A DNA stretch of 15,907 nucleotides, from the NCBI RefSeq assembly GCF_003334335.1, contig NZ_QOWQ01000058.1. The stretch is one strand, 5' to 3'. The stretch's first letter is position 1. The number at the start of each line of letters is the position of its first letter. A model generated the notes under the pieces. The model was not told the origin of the DNA. It saw nothing but the letters and a program-made list of their open reading frames with translations, and did not search any database. Shown here piece by piece: positions 3,743 to 13,696 of this stretch. Source of the stretch: Escherichia coli (GTDB taxonomy: Bacteria > Pseudomonadota > Gammaproteobacteria > Enterobacterales > Enterobacteriaceae). A program made the translations under genes and the position numbers.

Positions 3743-4422
3743 TCATGACTGTGCTGCAAAGCTCAGCGCGTCTTCCAGCGCCGCAAACGGATCCACCTCC
3801 GGCTTATCCTCATCCTCGCCCCAGCAGAGCATGGCGTCCTTCAGTGCAACATTCATCCCCTGTGCCCCAAAAACCGCTTTCACGATCTGTGCATTACGGA
3901 TATCCCCGCGCTCATCACCCAGCGGGGATACCCTGTCGAACTCCATCCACATCATCGCCTCGCTCGCACTCAGGCTGTGCTGCAGTTCGGATAAGGTGCG
4001 CCCCAGACGGAGCGCAAGTCGCATCAGAAAGCGAATTTCCGGGCGGGCTACTTTTTTCTGGCCGACTCTGCATCAGCGATCAGTTCCAGTGCCTGACGCA
4101 GCAACCGGGCATGTACCGGACCATAGACGGCCAGCACCTGCTCACGGTCGTCCGGAGTGAACACCCGTTGCAGATCCGTATCACACAGGACATCGCAGAA
4201 CAGCGTCACATCCGCTTCCAGGTTACGGCGGGTTTTCGCCACCACCGACAGGGTATCGTCATCCTCTCCATCACCATTGAGCACTTCCTGCCACAGATAC
4301 CAGGCCTCTGCCGAAGGCTCCCGCAGCACCACGCTGACATTTCTCCATTCCGGCACCTTCACCGTTTTATGACGGAACCCCGACAGTCTGGCCAGCGCCA
4401 GTGTTTTCAGATCTTTTGCCAT
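3743..4422 (-). CDS. tail assembly chaperone G-T fusion made by programmed -1 frameshift (gpGT analogue)
   Basis: A -1 slip at A-AAA-AAG (4057..4051) moves reading into the frame of ORF 3743..4024. That frame is open from the slip site (AAA GTA GCC CGC CCG GAA ATT CGC TTT CTG ATG...), giving ...SARKKVARPEIRFLMRLALRLG.... This is the conserved G/GT arrangement of long-tailed phages. Confidence 0.8.
4048..4422 (-). CDS. tail assembly chaperone (gpG analogue)
   Basis: 124-aa acidic ORF between the major tail protein and the tape measure. It ends ...ADAESARKK* with the slippery A-AAA-AAG immediately before the stop. Confidence 0.85.
   Translation of the reverse strand: MAKDLKTLALARLSGFRHKTVKVPEWRNVSVVLREPSAEAWYLWQEVLNGDGEDDDTLSVVAKTRRNLEADVTLFCDVLCDTDLQRVFTPDDREQVLAVYGPVHARLLRQALELIADAESARKK
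4051..4057 (-). promoter_or_regulatory. -1 ribosomal frameshift slippery heptamer A-AAA-AAG
   Basis: The plus strand reads CTTTTTT at 4051-4057, which is A AAA AAG in the gpG frame. It is followed at once by the gpG stop TAG (4050..4048). Confidence 0.8.
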
Positions 4423-4427
4423 AAGCC

Positions 4428-5144
4428 TTATCCGCCCGCACCATTAACCGTTACTGTACACGCATCAGAGGTAATGCTCTGCGGCTGTTCTGCAGAATCC
4501 GTTACCTCGCAGGTATAAGCCCCCTTATCACCTGACTGCGTATTGGCTTTACTGAAAGTGTCAGTAGTCTGTCCCTCTACCGGCTGACCATCCTTCTTCC
4601 AGGCGTATTTATACGGCGGCGTTCCCCCGTTGGCACTGACTGACATTGTCAGCAGCGCACCGGTATTCACGGCAAGTGTCTTCTCCGGATTTTTCACAAA
4701 CGCCAGCGGTACCACAAAGGACACCGGTTTGCCTTTCAGACGCAGTGAAAACGTTGCTGCCACCACGCCGTTGGTACCGGATGACCAGGTGTGCTGACGC
4801 ACTTCCGCCAGGAACTTAAAGCCCTTACCGGACGGAAACTGCACCTTAAACGCATACACCGTGTCATTGTCATAGGCATCACGCAGGGCGTTCTGGGCCT
4901 GATTCAGATAAAAATTACCCGACATGGAAATCTCGGACGACGCCCCCAGACCGTTGATGTTCTCCTGCTCTGTGGAGCAGAGCGTGGTCACATCAATATC
5001 CTGTTTCTGACCGGCGGTGAACTGGACTTCCTTGATGGTGCAGTCCAGGCGCAGATATTCCGCCTTATCCATAGTTTCAGCAGTCGCCGGGGCAGATGAA
5101 ATCATCACCTGCGTCAGCTGTGAGCGTTCATACAAAGCAGACAT
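4428..5144 (-). CDS. major tail (tube) protein with C-terminal Ig-like domain
   Basis: 238-aa ORF with a strong SD (AGGAGGCAGA-ATG), positioned upstream of the G/GT chaperones. The C-terminal ~90 aa (TLAVNTGALLTMSVSANGGTPPYKYAWKKDGQPVEGQTTDTFSKANTQSGDKGAYTCEVTD...) has the Y.W.KDG...D.G.Y.C.V pattern of Ig (I-set-like) domains known to decorate phage tail tubes. Confidence 0.85.
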   Translation of the reverse strand: MSALYERSQLTQVMISSAPATAETMDKAEYLRLDCTIKEVQFTAGQKQDIDVTTLCSTEQENINGLGASSEISMSGNFYLNQAQNALRDAYDNDTVYAFKVQFPSGKGFKFLAEVRQHTWSSGTNGVVAATFSLRLKGKPVSFVVPLAFVKNPEKTLAVNTGALLTMSVSANGGTPPYKYAWKKDGQPVEGQTTDTFSKANTQSGDKGAYTCEVTDSAEQPQSITSDACTVTVNGAGG

Positions 5145-6354: not shown

Positions 6355-6681
6355 TCATAACACCGTCGGACAACGCAAATCGTAAATCAGCACGGAAACA
6401 GAAAACGGCAGCTCCCCCTGAAGCAGTTCTTCCCGCTCCGCAAGATCCGGATTCCGGTACAGCATCCCGGTCAGTCGCATGGCAGCCCCCTTCATCCGGG
6501 TTAATGCCTCGCCCGGGATCAGTTCACCGTCCTCACGAATCACTTTATCCCGGCTGCCCTGAATGTAGGCCAGCAGCACGGCGGTAGCCTGACGAACCTT
6601 GTCCATCAGCATGTCATCATCCGCGTCATGGTCGACACGCAGATGTGCCTTGATCTCTTCCAGTGTCAGTAATGCCGTCAT
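6355..6681 (-). CDS. head-tail connector protein (gp6-like, Phage_connect_1 type)
   Basis: 108-aa ORF. The N-terminal LTLEEIKAHLRVDHDADDDML...A....Y is the classic gp6-like DNA-packaging/connector signature. Confidence 0.8.
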   Translation of the reverse strand: MTALLTLEEIKAHLRVDHDADDDMLMDKVRQATAVLLAYIQGSRDKVIREDGELIPGEALTRMKGAAMRLTGMLYRNPDLAEREELLQGELPFSVSVLIYDLRCPTVL

Positions 6682-7901
6682 TTTCCGCCTCCTGCATCCC
6701 GCCCACGTTTTGCAGCCAGGGTCCAGGCTGATGAATGAGCTTCTCCGGGTTTATCGCCGGTCATGCTGTTGCAGTGCCACAACGAGCCGCCCCACGTCAC
6801 TGTATCGCCGGGGTGGTAGATTTCACCGGCTCTGAACACACCGCGGTAGAGCATCACCGGCAGGGAAAATGTTTTTTCCGTACGCTGACCACTGCTCTGC
6901 AGGACCACCACAGAGAACAACCGCTCACCCGTCATGCTGACGTCAATATCCGCCACCCCGTCAACCAGGCATTCCCATCCCCGCATCCCGTGCGTTTTTT
7001 CATACGCCCGCCAGAGTCCGCCCTGGTGTGTGGCATACGTGCCCCGGGGAAAGGATTTTTGATCGTCAATGGCGGGGAGTATTTCCAGTGCCGTGGCATC
7101 ACGCCCGCCCTGCGGAGCCGGCAGGGCACTCACCGCATCCAGAACCGCCTTCTGCAGAACATCCGGATCGTAGTCACGACCGTCGCGCGGAACAGGAATA
7201 TGGCTTACCGCCTCCTTCACCATCTGCTCAAGCATCGGACGCACATCATCGGGAGTGATACTTTTACCGTTCGCCGGTACAGGAATATTTGCGACCGCAT
7301 CATTCACCGCCTTCTGCAATACTTCCGGATCGTAGTCACGACCATCACGCGGAACAGGGATATGACTTACCGCCTCCTTCACCATCTGTTCAAGCATCGG
7401 ACGCACATCATCCGGGGTGAGACTTTTACCGTCCGCTGGCTGCGGAATATTTGCGACCGCATCATTCACCGCCTTCTGCAGAACATCGGGATCATAGTCA
7501 CGACCGTCGCGCGGAACAGGGATATGGCTTACCGCCTCCTTCACCATCTGCTCAAGCATCGGACGCACATCATCGGGGGTAATACTTTTGCCGTCCGCCG
7601 GTACCGGAATATTCGCAACCGCATCATTCACCGCCTGCTTCAGTACTTCCGGATCGTAATCACGACCATCACGCGGTACCGGAATGGCCCCCACAGCGTC
7701 ATCCACCATCGCCTGCAGAACCAGACGCACCTCATCCACCGTCACATGCTTCTGTAATACCGCCGACAGGGAAGTCAGTTTCTCTTCAAACGCTTGTGCC
7801 TGCGAGGCCATCTTCCCCTCAAATGTGCGCTGTAAATCCGCCAGCACTGTGGAGAATTCTTCACCCAGCGCACGGATAATGGACAGTTCACGCTCTGTCA
7901 T
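6678..7901 (-). CDS. tandem-repeat virion-module protein with carbohydrate-binding-like C-terminus (function unknown; candidate head/neck fibre or decoration protein)
   Basis: 407-aa ORF with ATGA overlaps to the portal stop (7898-7901) and the connector start (6678-6681). It has a coiled-coil-like N-terminus, then 3.5 copies of a 54-aa unit. The C-terminal globular part ends IYHPGDTVTWGGSLWHCNSMTGDKPG...W. Confidence 0.85.
   Translation of the reverse strand: MTERELSIIRALGEEFSTVLADLQRTFEGKMASQAQAFEEKLTSLSAVLQKHVTVDEVRLVLQAMVDDAVGAIPVPRDGRDYDPEVLKQAVNDAVANIPVPADGKSITPDDVRPMLEQMVKEAVSHIPVPRDGRDYDPDVLQKAVNDAVANIPQPADGKSLTPDDVRPMLEQMVKEAVSHIPVPRDGRDYDPEVLQKAVNDAVANIPVPANGKSITPDDVRPMLEQMVKEAVSHIPVPRDGRDYDPDVLQKAVLDAVSALPAPQGGRDATALEILPAIDDQKSFPRGTYATHQGGLWRAYEKTHGMRGWECLVDGVADIDVSMTGERLFSVVVLQSSGQRTEKTFSLPVMLYRGVFRAGEIYHPGDTVTWGGSLWHCNSMTGDKPGEAHSSAWTLAAKRGRDAGGGK
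7125..7685 (-). repeat. in-frame 162-bp tandem repeat, ~3.5 copies (54-aa protein unit)
   Basis: The units IPVPRDGRDYDP(E/D)VL..AVNDAVAN plus IP(V/Q)PA(D/N)GKS(I/L)TPDDVRPMLEQMVKEAVSH repeat at aa 73-259. The DNA copies are clearly alignable by eye and differ mainly at synonymous positions. Confidence 0.95.
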
Positions 7902-9262
7902 TTTCGCAGTATCCCCCTGAACATCGCCTTCACCGCATCACGCTCTGTTTCGCTTATGGCCTTATTACCGTCAGACGCGCCCTCCTGGCGTGTGCCTGAC
8001 GACGTTTTCCCGGAAGACGCGAACGGATCCTCACGGGCATCACGACGGGACAGCGCCTCCAGACTGTAGTTCTGCTGCTGAAGATACAGTGCATCGCCTC
8101 CTGCCAGGGGCGGCAGATTCTCACGTTTACGGGCCTCATTGGGCGTGAGAAGCGTATTTTTCACCGCATCCCCCAGCGTTTTCATGCGACGTTCGCTGTC
8201 CATTCTCAGCAGCGTGGTGACGTCAAACTCCGTGCTCTCGTTTTCCCCTGTTTCCAGCGCCTCATCCAGTAACAGCTCAATGGACTCAATCAGCGTCTGC
8301 AGACACTGGGAATAATACTGCTGCTCCAGCGCCTCCACGTTGTCACTGGAAGGCGGTTGTCCCACACCAATCTTGTAGGCCGGGACACGGAACACCGAAC
8401 AGACAATTTCAGCCGTCATTTTCAGCTGTTCCACCGTCTGCGCATCCACCGGTGAAAACGTCGTGGGGTTATATTTCGCCCCGTTGCTCAGGATCGCCGT
8501 TTTCCCCGCATTTTCGCCGGTATACCCGCTGTCCCAGTTGCTCTTCAGTTTTTTCGCATTTTCTTCCGTTATACTGCCGGGGATCTCAATCACCCCGGAC
8601 GGCCTGCCGCCATTTCTGAAAAAAGACGTTGAATTTGCCTGAATATGATGCCCCTGCGTGGCAGCCAGCCCGGCAGCATACACCGGCGGCAGCCCCACAA
8701 GCGGATGAAAAAAACAGTTAAACCGGTCGTGGATCACTTCCCTGGCAGGCACCGTCACCGCCTCCGTGATCCCGCAGTTCCGGTCCGGTGTAATGCGATA
8801 GAACACCTCGCCGTCATCCGCCACCAGAGGTTCAACCCGGCTCCAGTCCAGAATACGCAGTTCTTTGATCTGCCCCCGGGAGTTACGGATTTTCAGCACC
8901 ACCGTATTGCCGTGACGCAGTTTGGCGTTCAGCCACAGTTCAAAAAACTGGATACGATTCTGCTGTGCATTGGGACGACGACAGAGACGGGCAATATCCC
9001 CCCGGCGCGTTTCCCTGCGTATCCCATGCGCATCCGTCTGCATAAGACGCAGCCGCATTTTGGCGATATCCTGGGATATCAGCGAAATACATGCAAACAC
9101 CGCATGAAAGGAGAGGACGGCTTCAGGATCGGCTTTCACGCCCTGCTGCCAGGCGCCGGAAAAGGGCTCAGCCACCGCCTGAAACAGGCTGGTCCAGCCC
9201 ACCTCTTTTACATCACGTCCTGATTTCTGGTTTTTTCGGGTTCGCCGCAAAAGGTTCCACAT
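7898..9262 (-). CDS. portal protein (HK97 family)
   Basis: 454-aa ORF with several features typical of Phage_portal (HK97-type) proteins: SF.AVFACISLISQDIAKM.L.L, RPN..Q....F.E.W...L..GN, FF.NGGRPSGV..., GENAGK.AIL..GAKY, DAQ..E...... and FRVP. Confidence 0.9.
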   Translation of the reverse strand: MWNLLRRTRKNQKSGRDVKEVGWTSLFQAVAEPFSGAWQQGVKADPEAVLSFHAVFACISLISQDIAKMRLRLMQTDAHGIRRETRRGDIARLCRRPNAQQNRIQFFELWLNAKLRHGNTVVLKIRNSRGQIKELRILDWSRVEPLVADDGEVFYRITPDRNCGITEAVTVPAREVIHDRFNCFFHPLVGLPPVYAAGLAATQGHHIQANSTSFFRNGGRPSGVIEIPGSITEENAKKLKSNWDSGYTGENAGKTAILSNGAKYNPTTFSPVDAQTVEQLKMTAEIVCSVFRVPAYKIGVGQPPSSDNVEALEQQYYSQCLQTLIESIELLLDEALETGENESTEFDVTTLLRMDSERRMKTLGDAVKNTLLTPNEARKRENLPPLAGGDALYLQQQNYSLEALSRRDAREDPFASSGKTSSGTRQEGASDGNKAISETERDAVKAMFRGILRK

Positions 9263-9429
9263 TCGCCATGCTCCGCATCACGTTTCTTTTTCTGACCTGC
9301 CGGACGTCGCACTGTGATGTACTCCGCCTTCCCCAGGCGAACCAGCACCTCCGCACACGGCTGTGCCACATCACGGATATCCCCGGCCCGGGCATCATGC
9401 GTGCCCTGCAGATACTGGATTTTTGCCAT
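9208..9429 (-). CDS. hypothetical small protein between capsid and portal genes
   Basis: 73-aa ORF (MAKIQYLQGTHDARAGDIRDVAQPCAEVLVRLGKAEYI...) that fills the capsid-portal gap. Its 3' end overlaps the portal start by 55 nt, it has no clear SD, and I recognise no homology. Confidence 0.4.
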   Translation of the reverse strand: MAKIQYLQGTHDARAGDIRDVAQPCAEVLVRLGKAEYITVRRPAGQKKKRDAEHGECGTFCGEPEKTRNQDVM

Positions 9430-9473: not shown

Positions 9474-10835
9474 TCAGCCGCCGGACGCAGTTCCGTAGTT
9501 CACACCGGTGATCACCGCCACTGCCGCGGTACGGCGACGACGCCAGTTGATCCAGCGCTCCGCACGGATGGCCACGCTGCCTGTCTGGAACATGGAAACC
9601 AGCTCCACCGGGGACGGCGTGGTACTGTCGCCGGTCGGCTCAGACTGCATTTCCAGTGATGCCTCGCGGGACATATCCACTGCCACGCCGCCGTCATCCG
9701 CCAGATAAATATCCGGGGCATTCACCAGCACCAGCTGGTCACCCACGTACTGGGAGACAATCACCGGCAGCCCCTGGAAGGAGCCACCCAGCAGGGTCAT
9801 GTCCGGGTATTCCTTCTGACCCAGCGCATTTTTACGCATGGACAGTGCCAGGGCATTGGTGCTGGACATCAGCCAGACCGCACCGGTGGGCTGCAGGTTT
9901 GCTGCCACAAACTGTCCAAACGCAGCCTCTGCATCCGCATCCGGGTTACCGGTTGATGCCGTGCCCTTCACATCATGGGTGATGGACGCCGGGGAGACAT
10001 CTGCCACTGCGGCTTTTTTCGGGTCCACAAAGTCTGTATCCAGACGCGCCACCACCGCTTCCGCCAGCGCATTACGGACCAGTGCATCAGCAGCCGGACT
10101 GGAAAAACGGATCAATTCTTCCGTCAGTACCGCAATGGCCGACACTTTCGCATGACTGAAGGTGATGGATTCAAAATCAAACTTCGTCAGGGGTTTTGCC
10201 TTACCCTCACCCACCCAGCCGGCAGCACCGCCGGACACCTGGGCGTGCACACGGATATTGAACGGCACCTGACGAAGTGCAGGGATCCCGCCCTGACCAA
10301 ATCGCCCGATAATGGTCTGCGGACGCAGGTAATCAATAAAGTCCTGTGCGTATTCCTGATATTCAGACAGGCTGCCTGCCCACTGCGGATCCGTGGTGGT
10401 CCCCGCGCCCACTGCCGATTTCAGGACATGATGCAGACGACTGTCATCCGGATACTGACGACGGGCCACTTCCAGGGCTTCAGATCGGACGCCTTTAGCC
10501 GCAGCCAGCGATTTGGCAAAGCGGGCGAAGCCAATCCCCTTATCCAGTTTCTGCTCCACACGGATCACCGGCGCAGAAGCCACCGCGGCCACATTCCCGT
10601 TACCGGCCTGTTTCACCGGCTGCGCCGTGGCGGCCTTACCGGCTTCCAGTTCACGCAGGCGCTTCAGGTGCGCATCCACCTGACGGATTTCCGCTGCGGT
10701 GTTGTCGTAATGCTCTTCCTCCTCCACATCCAGCGTGCGCCCTTCCTCTGCGGCTTTGGTCATGACCTCCTCAAGGGAGGCTGCCAGCGCTGCACGCTTG
10801 TTTTCAAAACTTTTAATCTGTTCGCCAATATTCAT
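9474..10835 (-). CDS. candidate independently initiated major capsid protein (in-frame internal start within the fusion ORF)
   Basis: ATG at 10835 (MNIGEQIKSFENKRAAL...) is preceded by AAGGAAAAGACCATA, an SD-like AAGGA about 10 nt upstream. It sits exactly at the protease/delta-domain boundary, and the 453-aa product would have normal HK97-type capsid size. Confidence 0.45.
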   Translation of the reverse strand: MNIGEQIKSFENKRAALAASLEEVMTKAAEEGRTLDVEEEEHYDNTAAEIRQVDAHLKRLRELEAGKAATAQPVKQAGNGNVAAVASAPVIRVEQKLDKGIGFARFAKSLAAAKGVRSEALEVARRQYPDDSRLHHVLKSAVGAGTTTDPQWAGSLSEYQEYAQDFIDYLRPQTIIGRFGQGGIPALRQVPFNIRVHAQVSGGAAGWVGEGKAKPLTKFDFESITFSHAKVSAIAVLTEELIRFSSPAADALVRNALAEAVVARLDTDFVDPKKAAVADVSPASITHDVKGTASTGNPDADAEAAFGQFVAANLQPTGAVWLMSSTNALALSMRKNALGQKEYPDMTLLGGSFQGLPVIVSQYVGDQLVLVNAPDIYLADDGGVAVDMSREASLEMQSEPTGDSTTPSPVELVSMFQTGSVAIRAERWINWRRRRTAAVAVITGVNYGTASGG

Positions 10836-11411
10836 TATGGTCTTTTCCTTATGAAAAACGGTTGTTGACTGTGCCGCAGCGCCGGCAGAAGATGCGATTT
10901 TCACCACCGGTTTCCGGTTGCCGGACGCGGCAGAAAACGGGCGGTCGTAAGATTTAATGGTCCGGATGGTGCATTCCGCATTCGCGGGCACGGTGACGGC
11001 AGACACCTCCATCAGTTCCCAGCGCATAAAATGCAGTCCGCCTCCGTCCAGAAAGGTGTATTCATGGGGACGGAAGCCCACGGACAGCCCCCTGACCAGC
11101 CCGGTCTTAATGGCCGCCCAGACCTCATCCAGCCGGGCAGCCAGTTGCGACGGCATATCCGGTACGGGCTTCACCAGTGTTGCCGTGATTTCCAGCCCTT
11201 CGCTGACCCGGCGCACCGTACACTGCCCCACCGGGCGGGAATGGTCATGCTGCCAGAGAAACGGGATCGCACTGCCAAACTCCGCGCCCTCCGGCTCCAG
11301 GATGTCACCATCCCGATCCGGAGAAGGCGTTGACGCAATCCCGGTGATCACCCGTTCATCCTCACTGAAGGATTTCACCGTCAGCAGGGAACAGGCCCGT
11401 TTAAGAGTCAC
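9474..11411 (-). CDS. prohead protease - major capsid protein fusion (HK97 family domains)
   Basis: Single 645-aa ORF with a GTG start at 11411, 5 nt after AGGAGG. Residues ~1-165 resemble HK97-type prohead serine protease (ITGIASTPSPDRDGDILEPEGAEF ... GLSVGF ... EVSAVTVPAN). Residues ~193-260 form an acidic coiled coil resembling a delta/scaffold domain. Residues ~270-645 resemble HK97-fold major capsid protein. Confidence 0.85.
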   Translation of the reverse strand: MTLKRACSLLTVKSFSEDERVITGIASTPSPDRDGDILEPEGAEFGSAIPFLWQHDHSRPVGQCTVRRVSEGLEITATLVKPVPDMPSQLAARLDEVWAAIKTGLVRGLSVGFRPHEYTFLDGGGLHFMRWELMEVSAVTVPANAECTIRTIKSYDRPFSAASGNRKPVVKIASSAGAAAQSTTVFHKEKTIMNIGEQIKSFENKRAALAASLEEVMTKAAEEGRTLDVEEEEHYDNTAAEIRQVDAHLKRLRELEAGKAATAQPVKQAGNGNVAAVASAPVIRVEQKLDKGIGFARFAKSLAAAKGVRSEALEVARRQYPDDSRLHHVLKSAVGAGTTTDPQWAGSLSEYQEYAQDFIDYLRPQTIIGRFGQGGIPALRQVPFNIRVHAQVSGGAAGWVGEGKAKPLTKFDFESITFSHAKVSAIAVLTEELIRFSSPAADALVRNALAEAVVARLDTDFVDPKKAAVADVSPASITHDVKGTASTGNPDADAEAAFGQFVAANLQPTGAVWLMSSTNALALSMRKNALGQKEYPDMTLLGGSFQGLPVIVSQYVGDQLVLVNAPDIYLADDGGVAVDMSREASLEMQSEPTGDSTTPSPVELVSMFQTGSVAIRAERWINWRRRRTAAVAVITGVNYGTASGG

Positions 11412-13136: not shown

Positions 13137-13696
13137 CCGTTGCCCTCATTATCGTTATTCACCACCAGTCGGGGTGGCGGTGGCACCGCAAAACGGTTAG
13201 CCGCTTTTTTCGCGGCATCACCTTTTGCCGATTTTTTCCCGGTATCCCCTTTTTTATGGTGCGTGAACTGCGCCAGACGCCAGGCCGCATCCAGTGCCAG
13301 TTTCGGATCAATGCAGAGGTTTTCCACCAGGATCCGCCCCATGGCTTTCACCGGATCGGGAAGACCATCCTCCATATATTCAATACCAGGAGACATCACC
13401 GCGGACGGTGGCATCTCCGGATTGTTTTCGTCCGGCTGTGGTATTGCAGCCGCCTCACGACGACGGGGTTTATCCTCCTGCTCTGATTTTTTCTGCCGGT
13501 AAACAGGAACCTCATCCACCTCCACCGTCTCGCATTGTTTACGGGCTATAAACGCAAGCACCTCCGGATCTTTTGCCAGCTGCGAGCCTTTAACCCTGGC
13601 GGTCTTCGCCGAATAACCGGCGGCAATGGCTGACGCTGTTTTGTTTTTCCCGGACATGAGCGCCAGCGCAAATTTTCGTTTTTGCGTTGTCAGCAC
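13133..13696 (-). CDS. terminase small subunit (Terminase_2-type N-terminal HTH)
   Basis: 187-aa ORF with a GTG start after GGAGGAGG. The N-terminus KRKFALALMSGKNKTASAIAAGYSAKTARVKGSQLAKDPEV matches the ...F...Y....N...AA..AGYS.KTA...GS.L pattern of Terminase_2 small subunits. It lies immediately upstream of terL. Confidence 0.85.
   Translation of the reverse strand: MLTTQKRKFALALMSGKNKTASAIAAGYSAKTARVKGSQLAKDPEVLAFIARKQCETVEVDEVPVYRQKKSEQEDKPRRREAAAIPQPDENNPEMPPSAVMSPGIEYMEDGLPDPVKAMGRILVENLCIDPKLALDAAWRLAQFTHHKKGDTGKKSAKGDAAKKAANRFAVPPPPRLVVNNDNEGNG

Follow-up and report, generated by a model that had tools for sequence, protein, structure and literature searches.

A fiber-like protein encoded beside the portal gene of proteobacterial phages: a possible portal-tethered appendage

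Fibers whose shafts are coiled or collagenous and whose tips are small beta structures are known already, and segmented trimeric neck fibers such as T4 fibritin (Wac) have been described. Portal proteins can carry C-terminal extensions of their own. Specifically, the P22 portal barrel consists of one ~120-residue helix per subunit, arranged with 12-fold symmetry. To our knowledge, all solved portals (SPP1, P22, T4, phi29, and HK97) have their C terminus in the crown, within the capsid. A third system is that of MuF and SPP1 gp7, whose genes directly follow portal genes; within the head, a few copies of gp7 bind the portal (PMC5576092). Here, we analyze a 15,907-nucleotide stretch of Escherichia coli DNA (NCBI RefSeq assembly GCF_003334335.1, contig NZ_QOWQ01000058.1; hereafter, the window) in which a 407-amino-acid (aa) protein, called X in this report, is encoded between the genes for the portal and the head–tail adaptor. 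An original prediction, made from the letters of the window, cast X as a trimeric, head- or neck-attached fiber or decoration protein with a glycan-binding tip. We find it more likely that X is a portal appendage than a free, glycan-binding head fiber. Our favored reading, to which we assign a probability of roughly 40%, is that X is a low-copy, trimeric structural component of the portal vertex that is tethered to the portal, perhaps on its interior side.

X and its two partners are arranged as follows:

7898..9262, minus strand: HK97-type portal gene, 454 aa, the conserved upstream partner of X
7913..7917, minus strand: run of five Gs (G5; C5 on the plus strand) in the last Arg-Gly codons of the portal gene, Shine-Dalgarno (SD)-like, 11 nt upstream of the X ATG, and the site of fusion
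7898..7901, minus strand: ATGA overlap of the portal stop TGA (7898-7900) with the X ATG (7899-7901)
6678..7901, minus strand: X coding sequence (CDS), stop codon included, a real open reading frame (ORF)
6678..6681, minus strand: ATGA overlap of the X stop with the adaptor ATG
6355..6681, minus strand: gp6-like head–tail adaptor gene, 108 aa, the downstream neighbor of X

The original prediction that the 407-aa ORF is coupled on both sides by ATGA overlaps is correct in its coordinates and in both overlaps. Its further proposal that X is an integral member of the head/neck module holds well beyond the window. We compared 80 loci from species-representative genomes of Enterobacterales, Pseudomonas, Burkholderiales, Rhizobiales, Sphingomonadales, and others. 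In 75 of them, the gene immediately upstream of X encodes a portal homolog of the same clade (39-70% identity). A fusion of the protease and the major capsid protein (MCP) precedes the portal in 70/80, and the adaptor follows X wherever it is detectable, such that the order TerL, protease/MCP fusion, portal, X, adaptor is found in ~70 of the 80 proteobacterial loci. Annotation of Salmonella phage FSL SP-016 and of Rhizobium phage RHph_X2_26 gives the same gene order. In every case, the X start either overlaps the portal stop (as ATGA, TGATG, or a longer stretch) or directly adjoins it, and all 36 diverse loci inspected possess a purine-rich, SD-like element 7-11 nt upstream of the X start, within the last codons of the portal gene. 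A programmed -1 frameshift joining portal and X was considered and rejected: lineages differ in their frame offset (-1 or +1), and the candidate slippery motif, A_AAA_TGA, is not conserved, being C_AAA_TGA in several Enterobacteriaceae. From the gene comparisons, it can be robustly concluded that X is a conserved protein of the structural module that is co-expressed with the portal and tied in evolution to a single portal clade.

A one-base polymorphism joins the X and portal genes in some relatives. The phage records nearest to the window are those of long-tailed Shiga toxin (Stx) 1- and Stx2c-converting phages and their relatives: 2851, BP-4795, YYZ-2008, 1717, and vB_EcoS-783R2. BP-4795 has the split arrangement (ORF58/ORF59). 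In phage 2851, and likewise in vB_EcoS-783R2, portal and X form one in-frame 859-aa CDS. Relative to the window, the sole relevant change in 2851 is G6 in place of G5 within the run TTCAGGGGG(G)AT, and this run is the SD of X. The junction of the fused polypeptide reads …FRGDTEKMTERE…. An exact scan of IMG/VR sorts the related stretches by the length of the run:

G4, other frame: 0 stretches
G5, split: 95 stretches
G6, fused in frame: 41 stretches
G7, other frame: 0 stretches

The fused state is thus present in 41/136 IMG/VR relatives (~30%), with the split state making up ~70% of E. coli-type loci. Both G5 and G6 occur on flanks that are identical over 1.2 kb, and a neighbor-joining tree of 100 haplotypes, with its root at G5, requires at least eight changes between split and fused. 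The outgroups (36 diverse loci inspected) are all split, and that comparison makes the split state the ancestral one. An intact X is usual in either kind of locus, at 46/53 distinct split and 14/17 fused loci. An early impression from the first 81 loci, that truncated X is limited to fused alleles, is withdrawn, since de-duplication and additional loci give truncation in 7/53 split and 3/17 fused loci. Fused G6 alleles retain the SD and ATG of X. An independent portal–X fusion of 1,237/1,248 aa, with a ~700-aa Pro-rich spacer, exists in a Pantoea prophage. In E. coli LR025101.1 (2236338-2244080), an IS21-family element (IstB plus transposase) interrupts a fused portal–X gene, leaving a 580-aa ORF that is listed as "phage portal protein, HK97 family."

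One-base deletions are expected about as often as insertions. Because G4 and G7 are nonetheless wholly absent, the distribution argues that fusion is selectively acceptable, while loss of both coupling and fusion is not. Fusions of this type are Rosetta-stone evidence that the N terminus of X operates beside the C terminus of the portal. Moreover, because the fused form is common and is present in records from induced or propagated phages, we infer that X works while tethered to the portal C terminus. Fusion places X at the portal C terminus, which is inside the capsid in known portals, and the interior side is favored for that reason.

The hypothesis is the following. Translation of X would be coupled to that of the portal gene, with the G-run in the last Arg-Gly codons of the portal gene acting as the ribosome-binding site and the ATG overlapping the portal stop. 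The N-terminal ~50-residue helix of X would be the end that is seated at the portal C terminus. The acidic helix–loop repeats, or the collagen-like or Pro-rich repeats of other members, would serve as a length-tolerant spacer, and the C-terminal beta domain with its carbohydrate-binding module (CBM) 5/12-like portion would most likely be the folding/registration knob of a trimer, which may also bind some conserved ligand. One extra G would convert this arrangement into a single portal–X polypeptide. X would thus be the detachable equivalent of a C-terminal portal extension, situated on the capsid-interior (crown) side, where it could have a role in DNA organization or ejection. An unlikely but far-reaching form of this hypothesis is that X defines a new class of virion component, a trimeric, length-variable fiber on the portal crown inside the capsid, for which a one-base change in the G-run of the SD switches attachment between non-covalent and covalent. 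If so, G5/G6 would be a natural, recurrent portal-architecture switch in Stx-converting and many other proteobacterial prophages.

The anatomy of X bears on these possibilities. Its parts, from N to C terminus, are:

7749..7895, minus strand: long N-terminal alpha-helix, aa 3-51, putative anchor or oligomerization helix (AlphaFold predicted local distance difference test (pLDDT) ~90)
7686..7745, minus strand: degenerate first half-repeat, aa 53-72 (VTVDEVRLVLQAMVDDAVGA), resembling the 29-aa half (AlphaFold helix 55-71)
7125..7685, minus strand: repeat array, aa 73-259, three 54-aa units plus one extra 25-aa half (Tandem Repeats Finder (TRF), motif spacing, secondary structure)
6681..7115, minus strand: conserved, family-defining C-terminal all-beta domain (C-domain), aa 263-407 (AlphaFold pLDDT 92.9)
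6711..6848, minus strand: CBM5/12-like sub-domain, aa ~352-397

The coiled-coil-like N terminus of the original prediction (aa 1-52) is indeed predicted as a single long helix, but a simple test for heptad periodicity on aa 3-51 is not significant, with 1927/5000 shuffles reaching the observed value. The repeats following the helix are detected by TRF with a period of 162 and 3.3 copies (7144-7676, score 850). Eight [IL]PxP motifs, at aa 73, 98, 127, 152, 181, 206, 235, and 260, alternate in spacing between 25 and 29 aa. The 54-aa unit and 162-bp period of the original prediction therefore stand, whereas its ~27-aa half-units do not: each unit comprises a 25-aa half (IPVPRDGRDYDPxVLxxAVNDAVAN) and a 29-aa half (IPxPAxGKSxTPDDVRPMLEQMVKEAVSH). 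Full units occupy aa 73-234, a further half occupies aa 235-259, and the degenerate half precedes aa 73. Each half consists of a ~12-residue Pro/Asp/Gly loop, modeled by AlphaFold with low confidence, followed by a helix of 13 or 17 residues in alternation. The spacer repeats are strongly acidic (net -16), and X has an isoelectric point (pI) of 4.96. Searches with the helical portions are uninformative. Sub-threshold Pfam matches of the repeats to TetR_C_35, FliG_N, and DUF4244 were discarded, a precomputed "faint" sub-threshold match to PF28083 (QatB) is spurious, and the PDB sequence search returns designed helical repeats alone (E 0.018).

Full repeat copies differ from one another at 14-24 positions per 162 nt. 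Synonymous codon differences (11-16) exceed non-synonymous ones (3-5), as had been predicted, and the predicted example, CGC GAC GGT versus CGT GAT GGT, is exact. Because of that excess, the repeat sequence is judged to be under purifying selection. The companion claim, that selection also holds the repeat number, is contradicted by the copy-number comparison. Specifically, X is 353, 407, 461, 515, or 569 aa long in E. coli-type relatives, and the gene spans 4.6 to 10.6 times 162 nt. Because the lengths of near relatives step by 54 aa, the repeat number is not fixed but is free to vary in whole 54-aa units.

Variation of the spacer is yet greater across the family. Among clusters drawn at 50% identity, the C-terminal 145 aa retrieve 5,235 representatives with E<=1e-3, of which 327 reach E<=1e-30. 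The conserved domain is invariably C-terminal, in proteins of ~190-660 aa, and three parts are common to the family: an N-terminal helix, an interchangeable spacer, and the C-domain. The spacer can be PxPxDGKS-type helix–loop repeats, as in X, LPxPEPLPDI repeats, or collagen-like G-X-Y runs. At least five G-X-Y triplets are present in 65 of 149 representatives and at least eight in 42, with a maximum of 47. A collagen triple helix requires three chains. Because these runs replace the helical repeats in so many relatives, the family is most likely trimeric, and the trimer of the original prediction is rated likely; its fibrous layout of helix, spacer, and globular end is likewise upheld. Judged by its sequence, X is robustly assigned an architecture built like that of a trimeric fiber, with a spacer of dispensable length and a conserved beta knob. 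Three Sphingomonas loci encode shorter proteins that share only the CBM5/12-like end and lie directly after the capsid gene with no portal upstream; they may represent a different use of the same end module.

The family is widespread and poorly labeled. Of 5,426 complete E. coli genomes, 1,245 (23%) contain DNA encoding the C-domain, at 2,918 places in all, with up to eight per genome and six on plasmids. In these genomes, the RefSeq name is always "phage portal protein." Elsewhere, PHROGs and GenBank/RefSeq label the family "portal protein" or leave it unnamed, and some records read "portal protein (pseudogene)." X has no Phage_portal or TIGR01537 match, despite the portal labels of GenBank/RefSeq and of PHROG 2271/1289. 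The label arises because fused alleles carry both parts: X matches positions 455-859 of the PHROG 2271 profile, which spans both, in addition to phrogs 8767/16748. The family has no Pfam family above threshold, no NCBIfam model, and no solved PDB structure. A look-up of the exact X sequence found no record, and the literature search found no experimental study of the protein.

The C-domain is the part on which the original prediction rested its functional claim, namely that a CBM5/12-type C terminus forms a glycan-binding tip. The AlphaFold model of the domain (pLDDT 92.9) was built with 143 homologs in monomer runs. A fold test shows that the small three-stranded beta fold of chitin-binding domains is present in the final ~45 residues of X, and the X family profile matches PDB chitin-binding domains with E 0.0025-0.05. 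The seven-strand part preceding this module has no match. The sequence scores below the Pfam threshold for PF02839 (19.1 bits versus a 26.2-bit gathering threshold, E=0.0014, aa 357-387). In one template alignment (2rts), the glycan-stacking aromatic pair is also missing: chitinase KYW aligns with n-e-d in the family consensus and with N-S-M in X. Thus, the CBM5/12 fold is common to X, but CBM5/12 membership and glycan binding are not established.

Conservation tells a similar story. The C-domain is the most conserved part of X, with 40-69% identity across alpha-, beta-, and gamma-proteobacterial hosts and with invariant residues G266, G295, G308, W309, G315, D366, P385, L395, and G400. In hosts as different as Rhizobium and E. 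coli, its conservation is approximately equal to that of the portal and MCP of the same loci. A receptor tip that determines host range is therefore disfavored, whether X is a portal appendage or an external fiber. Such conservation fits a structural role better than a host-range role and favors either a folding/registration function or a universal ligand. With a sub-threshold match, no aromatic pair, and a conservation pattern unlike that of a host-specific receptor tip, the predicted glycan binding by the C-domain is, on present sequence evidence, unsupported.

Several points weigh against a portal-tethered appendage on the interior side. The presence of X in virions and its location there are predictions from gene data. 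Spacers range from none to >700 aa and collagen rods extend up to ~40 nm, which is typical of exposed fibers and not of internal proteins. The tip resembles tail-fiber tips and chitin-binding modules, and an acidic spacer (net -16) would be awkward beside packed DNA. With SD and ATG kept in the fused allele, internal initiation might still provide free X, fusion being merely tolerated. The absence of G4 and G7 may stem from damage to the portal tail and not from a need for X. Finally, fusions are rare outside E. coli (1/~75 loci).

These points lead to the rival that survives best, one that we rate only slightly below the favored reading and that is close to the original model. X could be an external, fibritin-like neck or collar whisker whose N-terminal helix docks outside the portal–adaptor junction and whose spacer projects a trimeric knob onto a common surface glycan or peptidoglycan, aiding adsorption. 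Fused alleles would then be tolerated accidents in which the retained SD and ATG, conserved in those alleles, supply free X. The fiber architecture, including collagen-like spacers in 65/149 representatives, the very wide and unconstrained variation in spacer length, the acidic composition (pI 4.96, repeats net -16), and a CBM5/12-like tip fold resembling phage fiber tips are as expected of a whisker, and so is a gene flanked by, and coupled to, those of the portal and the adaptor. The free surface or decoration fiber of the original prediction keeps its fiber-like layout but fits poorly with portal fusion in 41/136 IMG/VR relatives and in phage 2851, because fusion puts the N terminus of X at the portal C terminus, which is inside the head in solved portals. 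Fusion is also common (30%) and has recurred, with G4 and G7 absent from the scans. Further points against the whisker are a CBM match below threshold, a canonical aromatic pair that is not conserved, and a tip that, unlike receptor-binding tips, varies least of all parts between very different hosts. No homology of X to a non-surface protein emerged, and the portal fusion bears on that question as well.

We consider two further explanations improbable. X could be an ejected internal, pilot-like protein that is packaged at the portal, exits via the tail with the DNA, and uses its CBM5/12-like domain to engage the N-acetylglucosamine-containing glycan of periplasmic peptidoglycan. The position of the gene after the portal, as in MuF/gp7, the fold resembling chitin-binding domains, and a conserved C-domain compatible with a ligand common to all proteobacteria are in keeping with this notion. 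However, a covalent portal fusion would need to be cleaved before ejection, a folded trimeric knob and collagen rods are poorly suited to passage through the tail tube, the aromatic binding residues are absent, and there is no MuF-type domain. Alternatively, and with as little probability in our estimation, X could be an assembly factor that stays out of the virion, or could decorate the capsid at some other place, with co-expression as the only basis of its portal linkage. Tight translational coupling, taken alone, does show co-expression rather than binding, and the three Sphingomonas loci place a shorter protein with a CBM-like end directly after the MCP gene. Yet decoration requires hundreds of copies, whereas the partner to which X is coupled has 12; a single portal clade accompanies X in 75/80 loci; and the fusions imply physical proximity to the portal. 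The remaining possibility, that X is the C-terminal part of a long portal and that the split form is a pseudogenizing frameshift, as several GenBank records annotate it, has records naming X "portal protein" or "portal protein (pseudogene)" and a PHROG 2271 profile covering both parts in its favor, but it is largely refuted by comparative data and very improbable: the split state is ancestral, universal in outgroups, found in 70% of E. coli-type loci, and present in BP-4795; X has its own SD and ATG and is intact in 46/53 distinct split loci; and X lacks portal-fold similarity, the Pfam portal domain ending at portal residue 382.

The surroundings of X are those of a head–tail module. All genes in the region are on the minus strand, in the order TerS (13696-13133), TerL (13136-11475), a 645-aa protease/scaffold/major-capsid fusion (11411-9474), a small ORF, the portal (9262-7898), X (7901-6678), and the adaptor (6681-6355), followed downstream by genes for head completion, gp10-like, gp17-like, an Ig-domain tail tube protein, chaperones, and the tape measure protein. 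The 454-aa portal carries the entire portal domain (residues 54-382; Pfam Phage_portal 2.8e-81, TIGR01537 6e-105), and its final ~70 residues, past the Pfam domain, are a low-complexity tail. The adaptor matches Phage_connect_1 (1.5e-7). The 645-aa polypeptide (9474-11411, minus) comprises a Peptidase_S78 prohead protease (aa 48-152), a helical linker, and an HK97-fold capsid protein (aa ~386-635); its encoding upstream of the portal gene is an unusual order for HK97-like modules. The small ORF between the capsid fusion and the portal (9208-9429, minus, 73 aa) overlaps the portal start, and its counterparts in BP-4795 (ORF57), PPompW_699, and FSL SP-016 are called hypothetical protein.

Other features of the window are recorded here as observations. 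The end of X at 6678-6690 reads GGC GGA AAA TGA (…GGGK*, with the ATGA overlap with the adaptor), which gives the 407-aa form; in phage 2851 (positions 7205-7225 of that locus), the end is GGC TGA (…GG*, with a 2-nt gap), which gives a 405-aa form one substitution apart. The tail tube protein (4428-5144, minus) has a C-terminal Ig-like domain (Ig_2/Ig_3/I-set). The label "fibritin (wac) protein" in vB_EcoS-783R2 belongs to this tail tube gene and not to X, and it appears to be a mis-annotation. The ORF pair 4048-4422 and 3743-4024 (minus) matches Phage_TAC_1 and Phage_tail_T in a relative and forms a G/GT-type tail assembly chaperone pair, a type normally joined via a -1 frameshift. Finally, a 27-bp tandem duplication (13200-13253, 2.0 copies, 85% match) lies in the 3' part of the small terminase ORF.

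Long-tailed Stx1 and Stx2c phages carry the X gene, as do alpha-, beta-, and gamma-proteobacterial prophages, yet no curated family covers X, and databases wrongly name it "portal protein." Regarding annotation, split alleles should not be recorded as pseudogenes, and X should not be called portal. If X is a portal-tethered appendage, it adds to the HK97-type head a component that the model phages lack, and DNA retention/ejection or adsorption in Stx phages may be affected. The G5/G6 polymorphism offers a natural experiment, with matched split (BP-4795) and fused (2851) phages.

How does X compare with the systems known? Like T4 fibritin, X has a (putative) N-terminal attachment region, a rod of short helical segments and loops, a small C-terminal beta domain that possibly nucleates trimer folding, a gene beside those for neck proteins, and an expected low copy number. 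Unlike fibritin, X has a C-domain of ~140 aa rather than 30, its heptad test is not significant, and it is found fused to the portal C terminus, which fibritin is not known to be; PDB sequence and fold searches give no match of X to fibritin or foldon. With MuF/SPP1 gp7, X shares a gene located directly after the portal (75/80 loci for X; the same rule in PMC5576092). X has no PF04233 (Phage_Mu_F) or PF06152 (Phage_min_cap2) match at E<=0.1, and its organization is reversed: the conserved part of X is C-terminal and its N terminus is a ~50-aa helix, whereas MuF proteins have an N-terminal conserved domain and a variable C terminus. As to portal C-terminal extensions such as the P22 barrel, X in the fused allele is literally one, starting with a long helix. 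X differs from the barrel in being 245-570+ aa long, probably trimeric, furnished with a globular end, and ancestrally a separate polypeptide.

The comparison extends to the tip. The CBM5/12 domains of ChiB, ChiC, ChiA1, and chitin deacetylases resemble the end module of X, but in X that module sits inside a larger seven-strand beta domain, and the chitinase aromatic pair after the motif aligns with non-aromatic residues. Collagen-like phage fiber and tail-fiber proteins with CBM5/12-type ends in BFVD ("Collagen triple helix repeat," "ChiC_BD") resemble the X family by Foldseek (E 1e-7 to 1e-4), and many members of the X family have long G-X-Y spacers, but the low template modeling (TM) scores (0.2-0.4) mean that nothing beyond the small end module is held in common. 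Furthermore, those fibers are encoded by tail-module genes, whereas X is locked to the portal gene. What is new relative to all of these systems is an unnamed, very large family that is locked to the portal gene, systematically mis-annotated as portal, and subject to a recurrent one-base split/fused polymorphism within its own SD.

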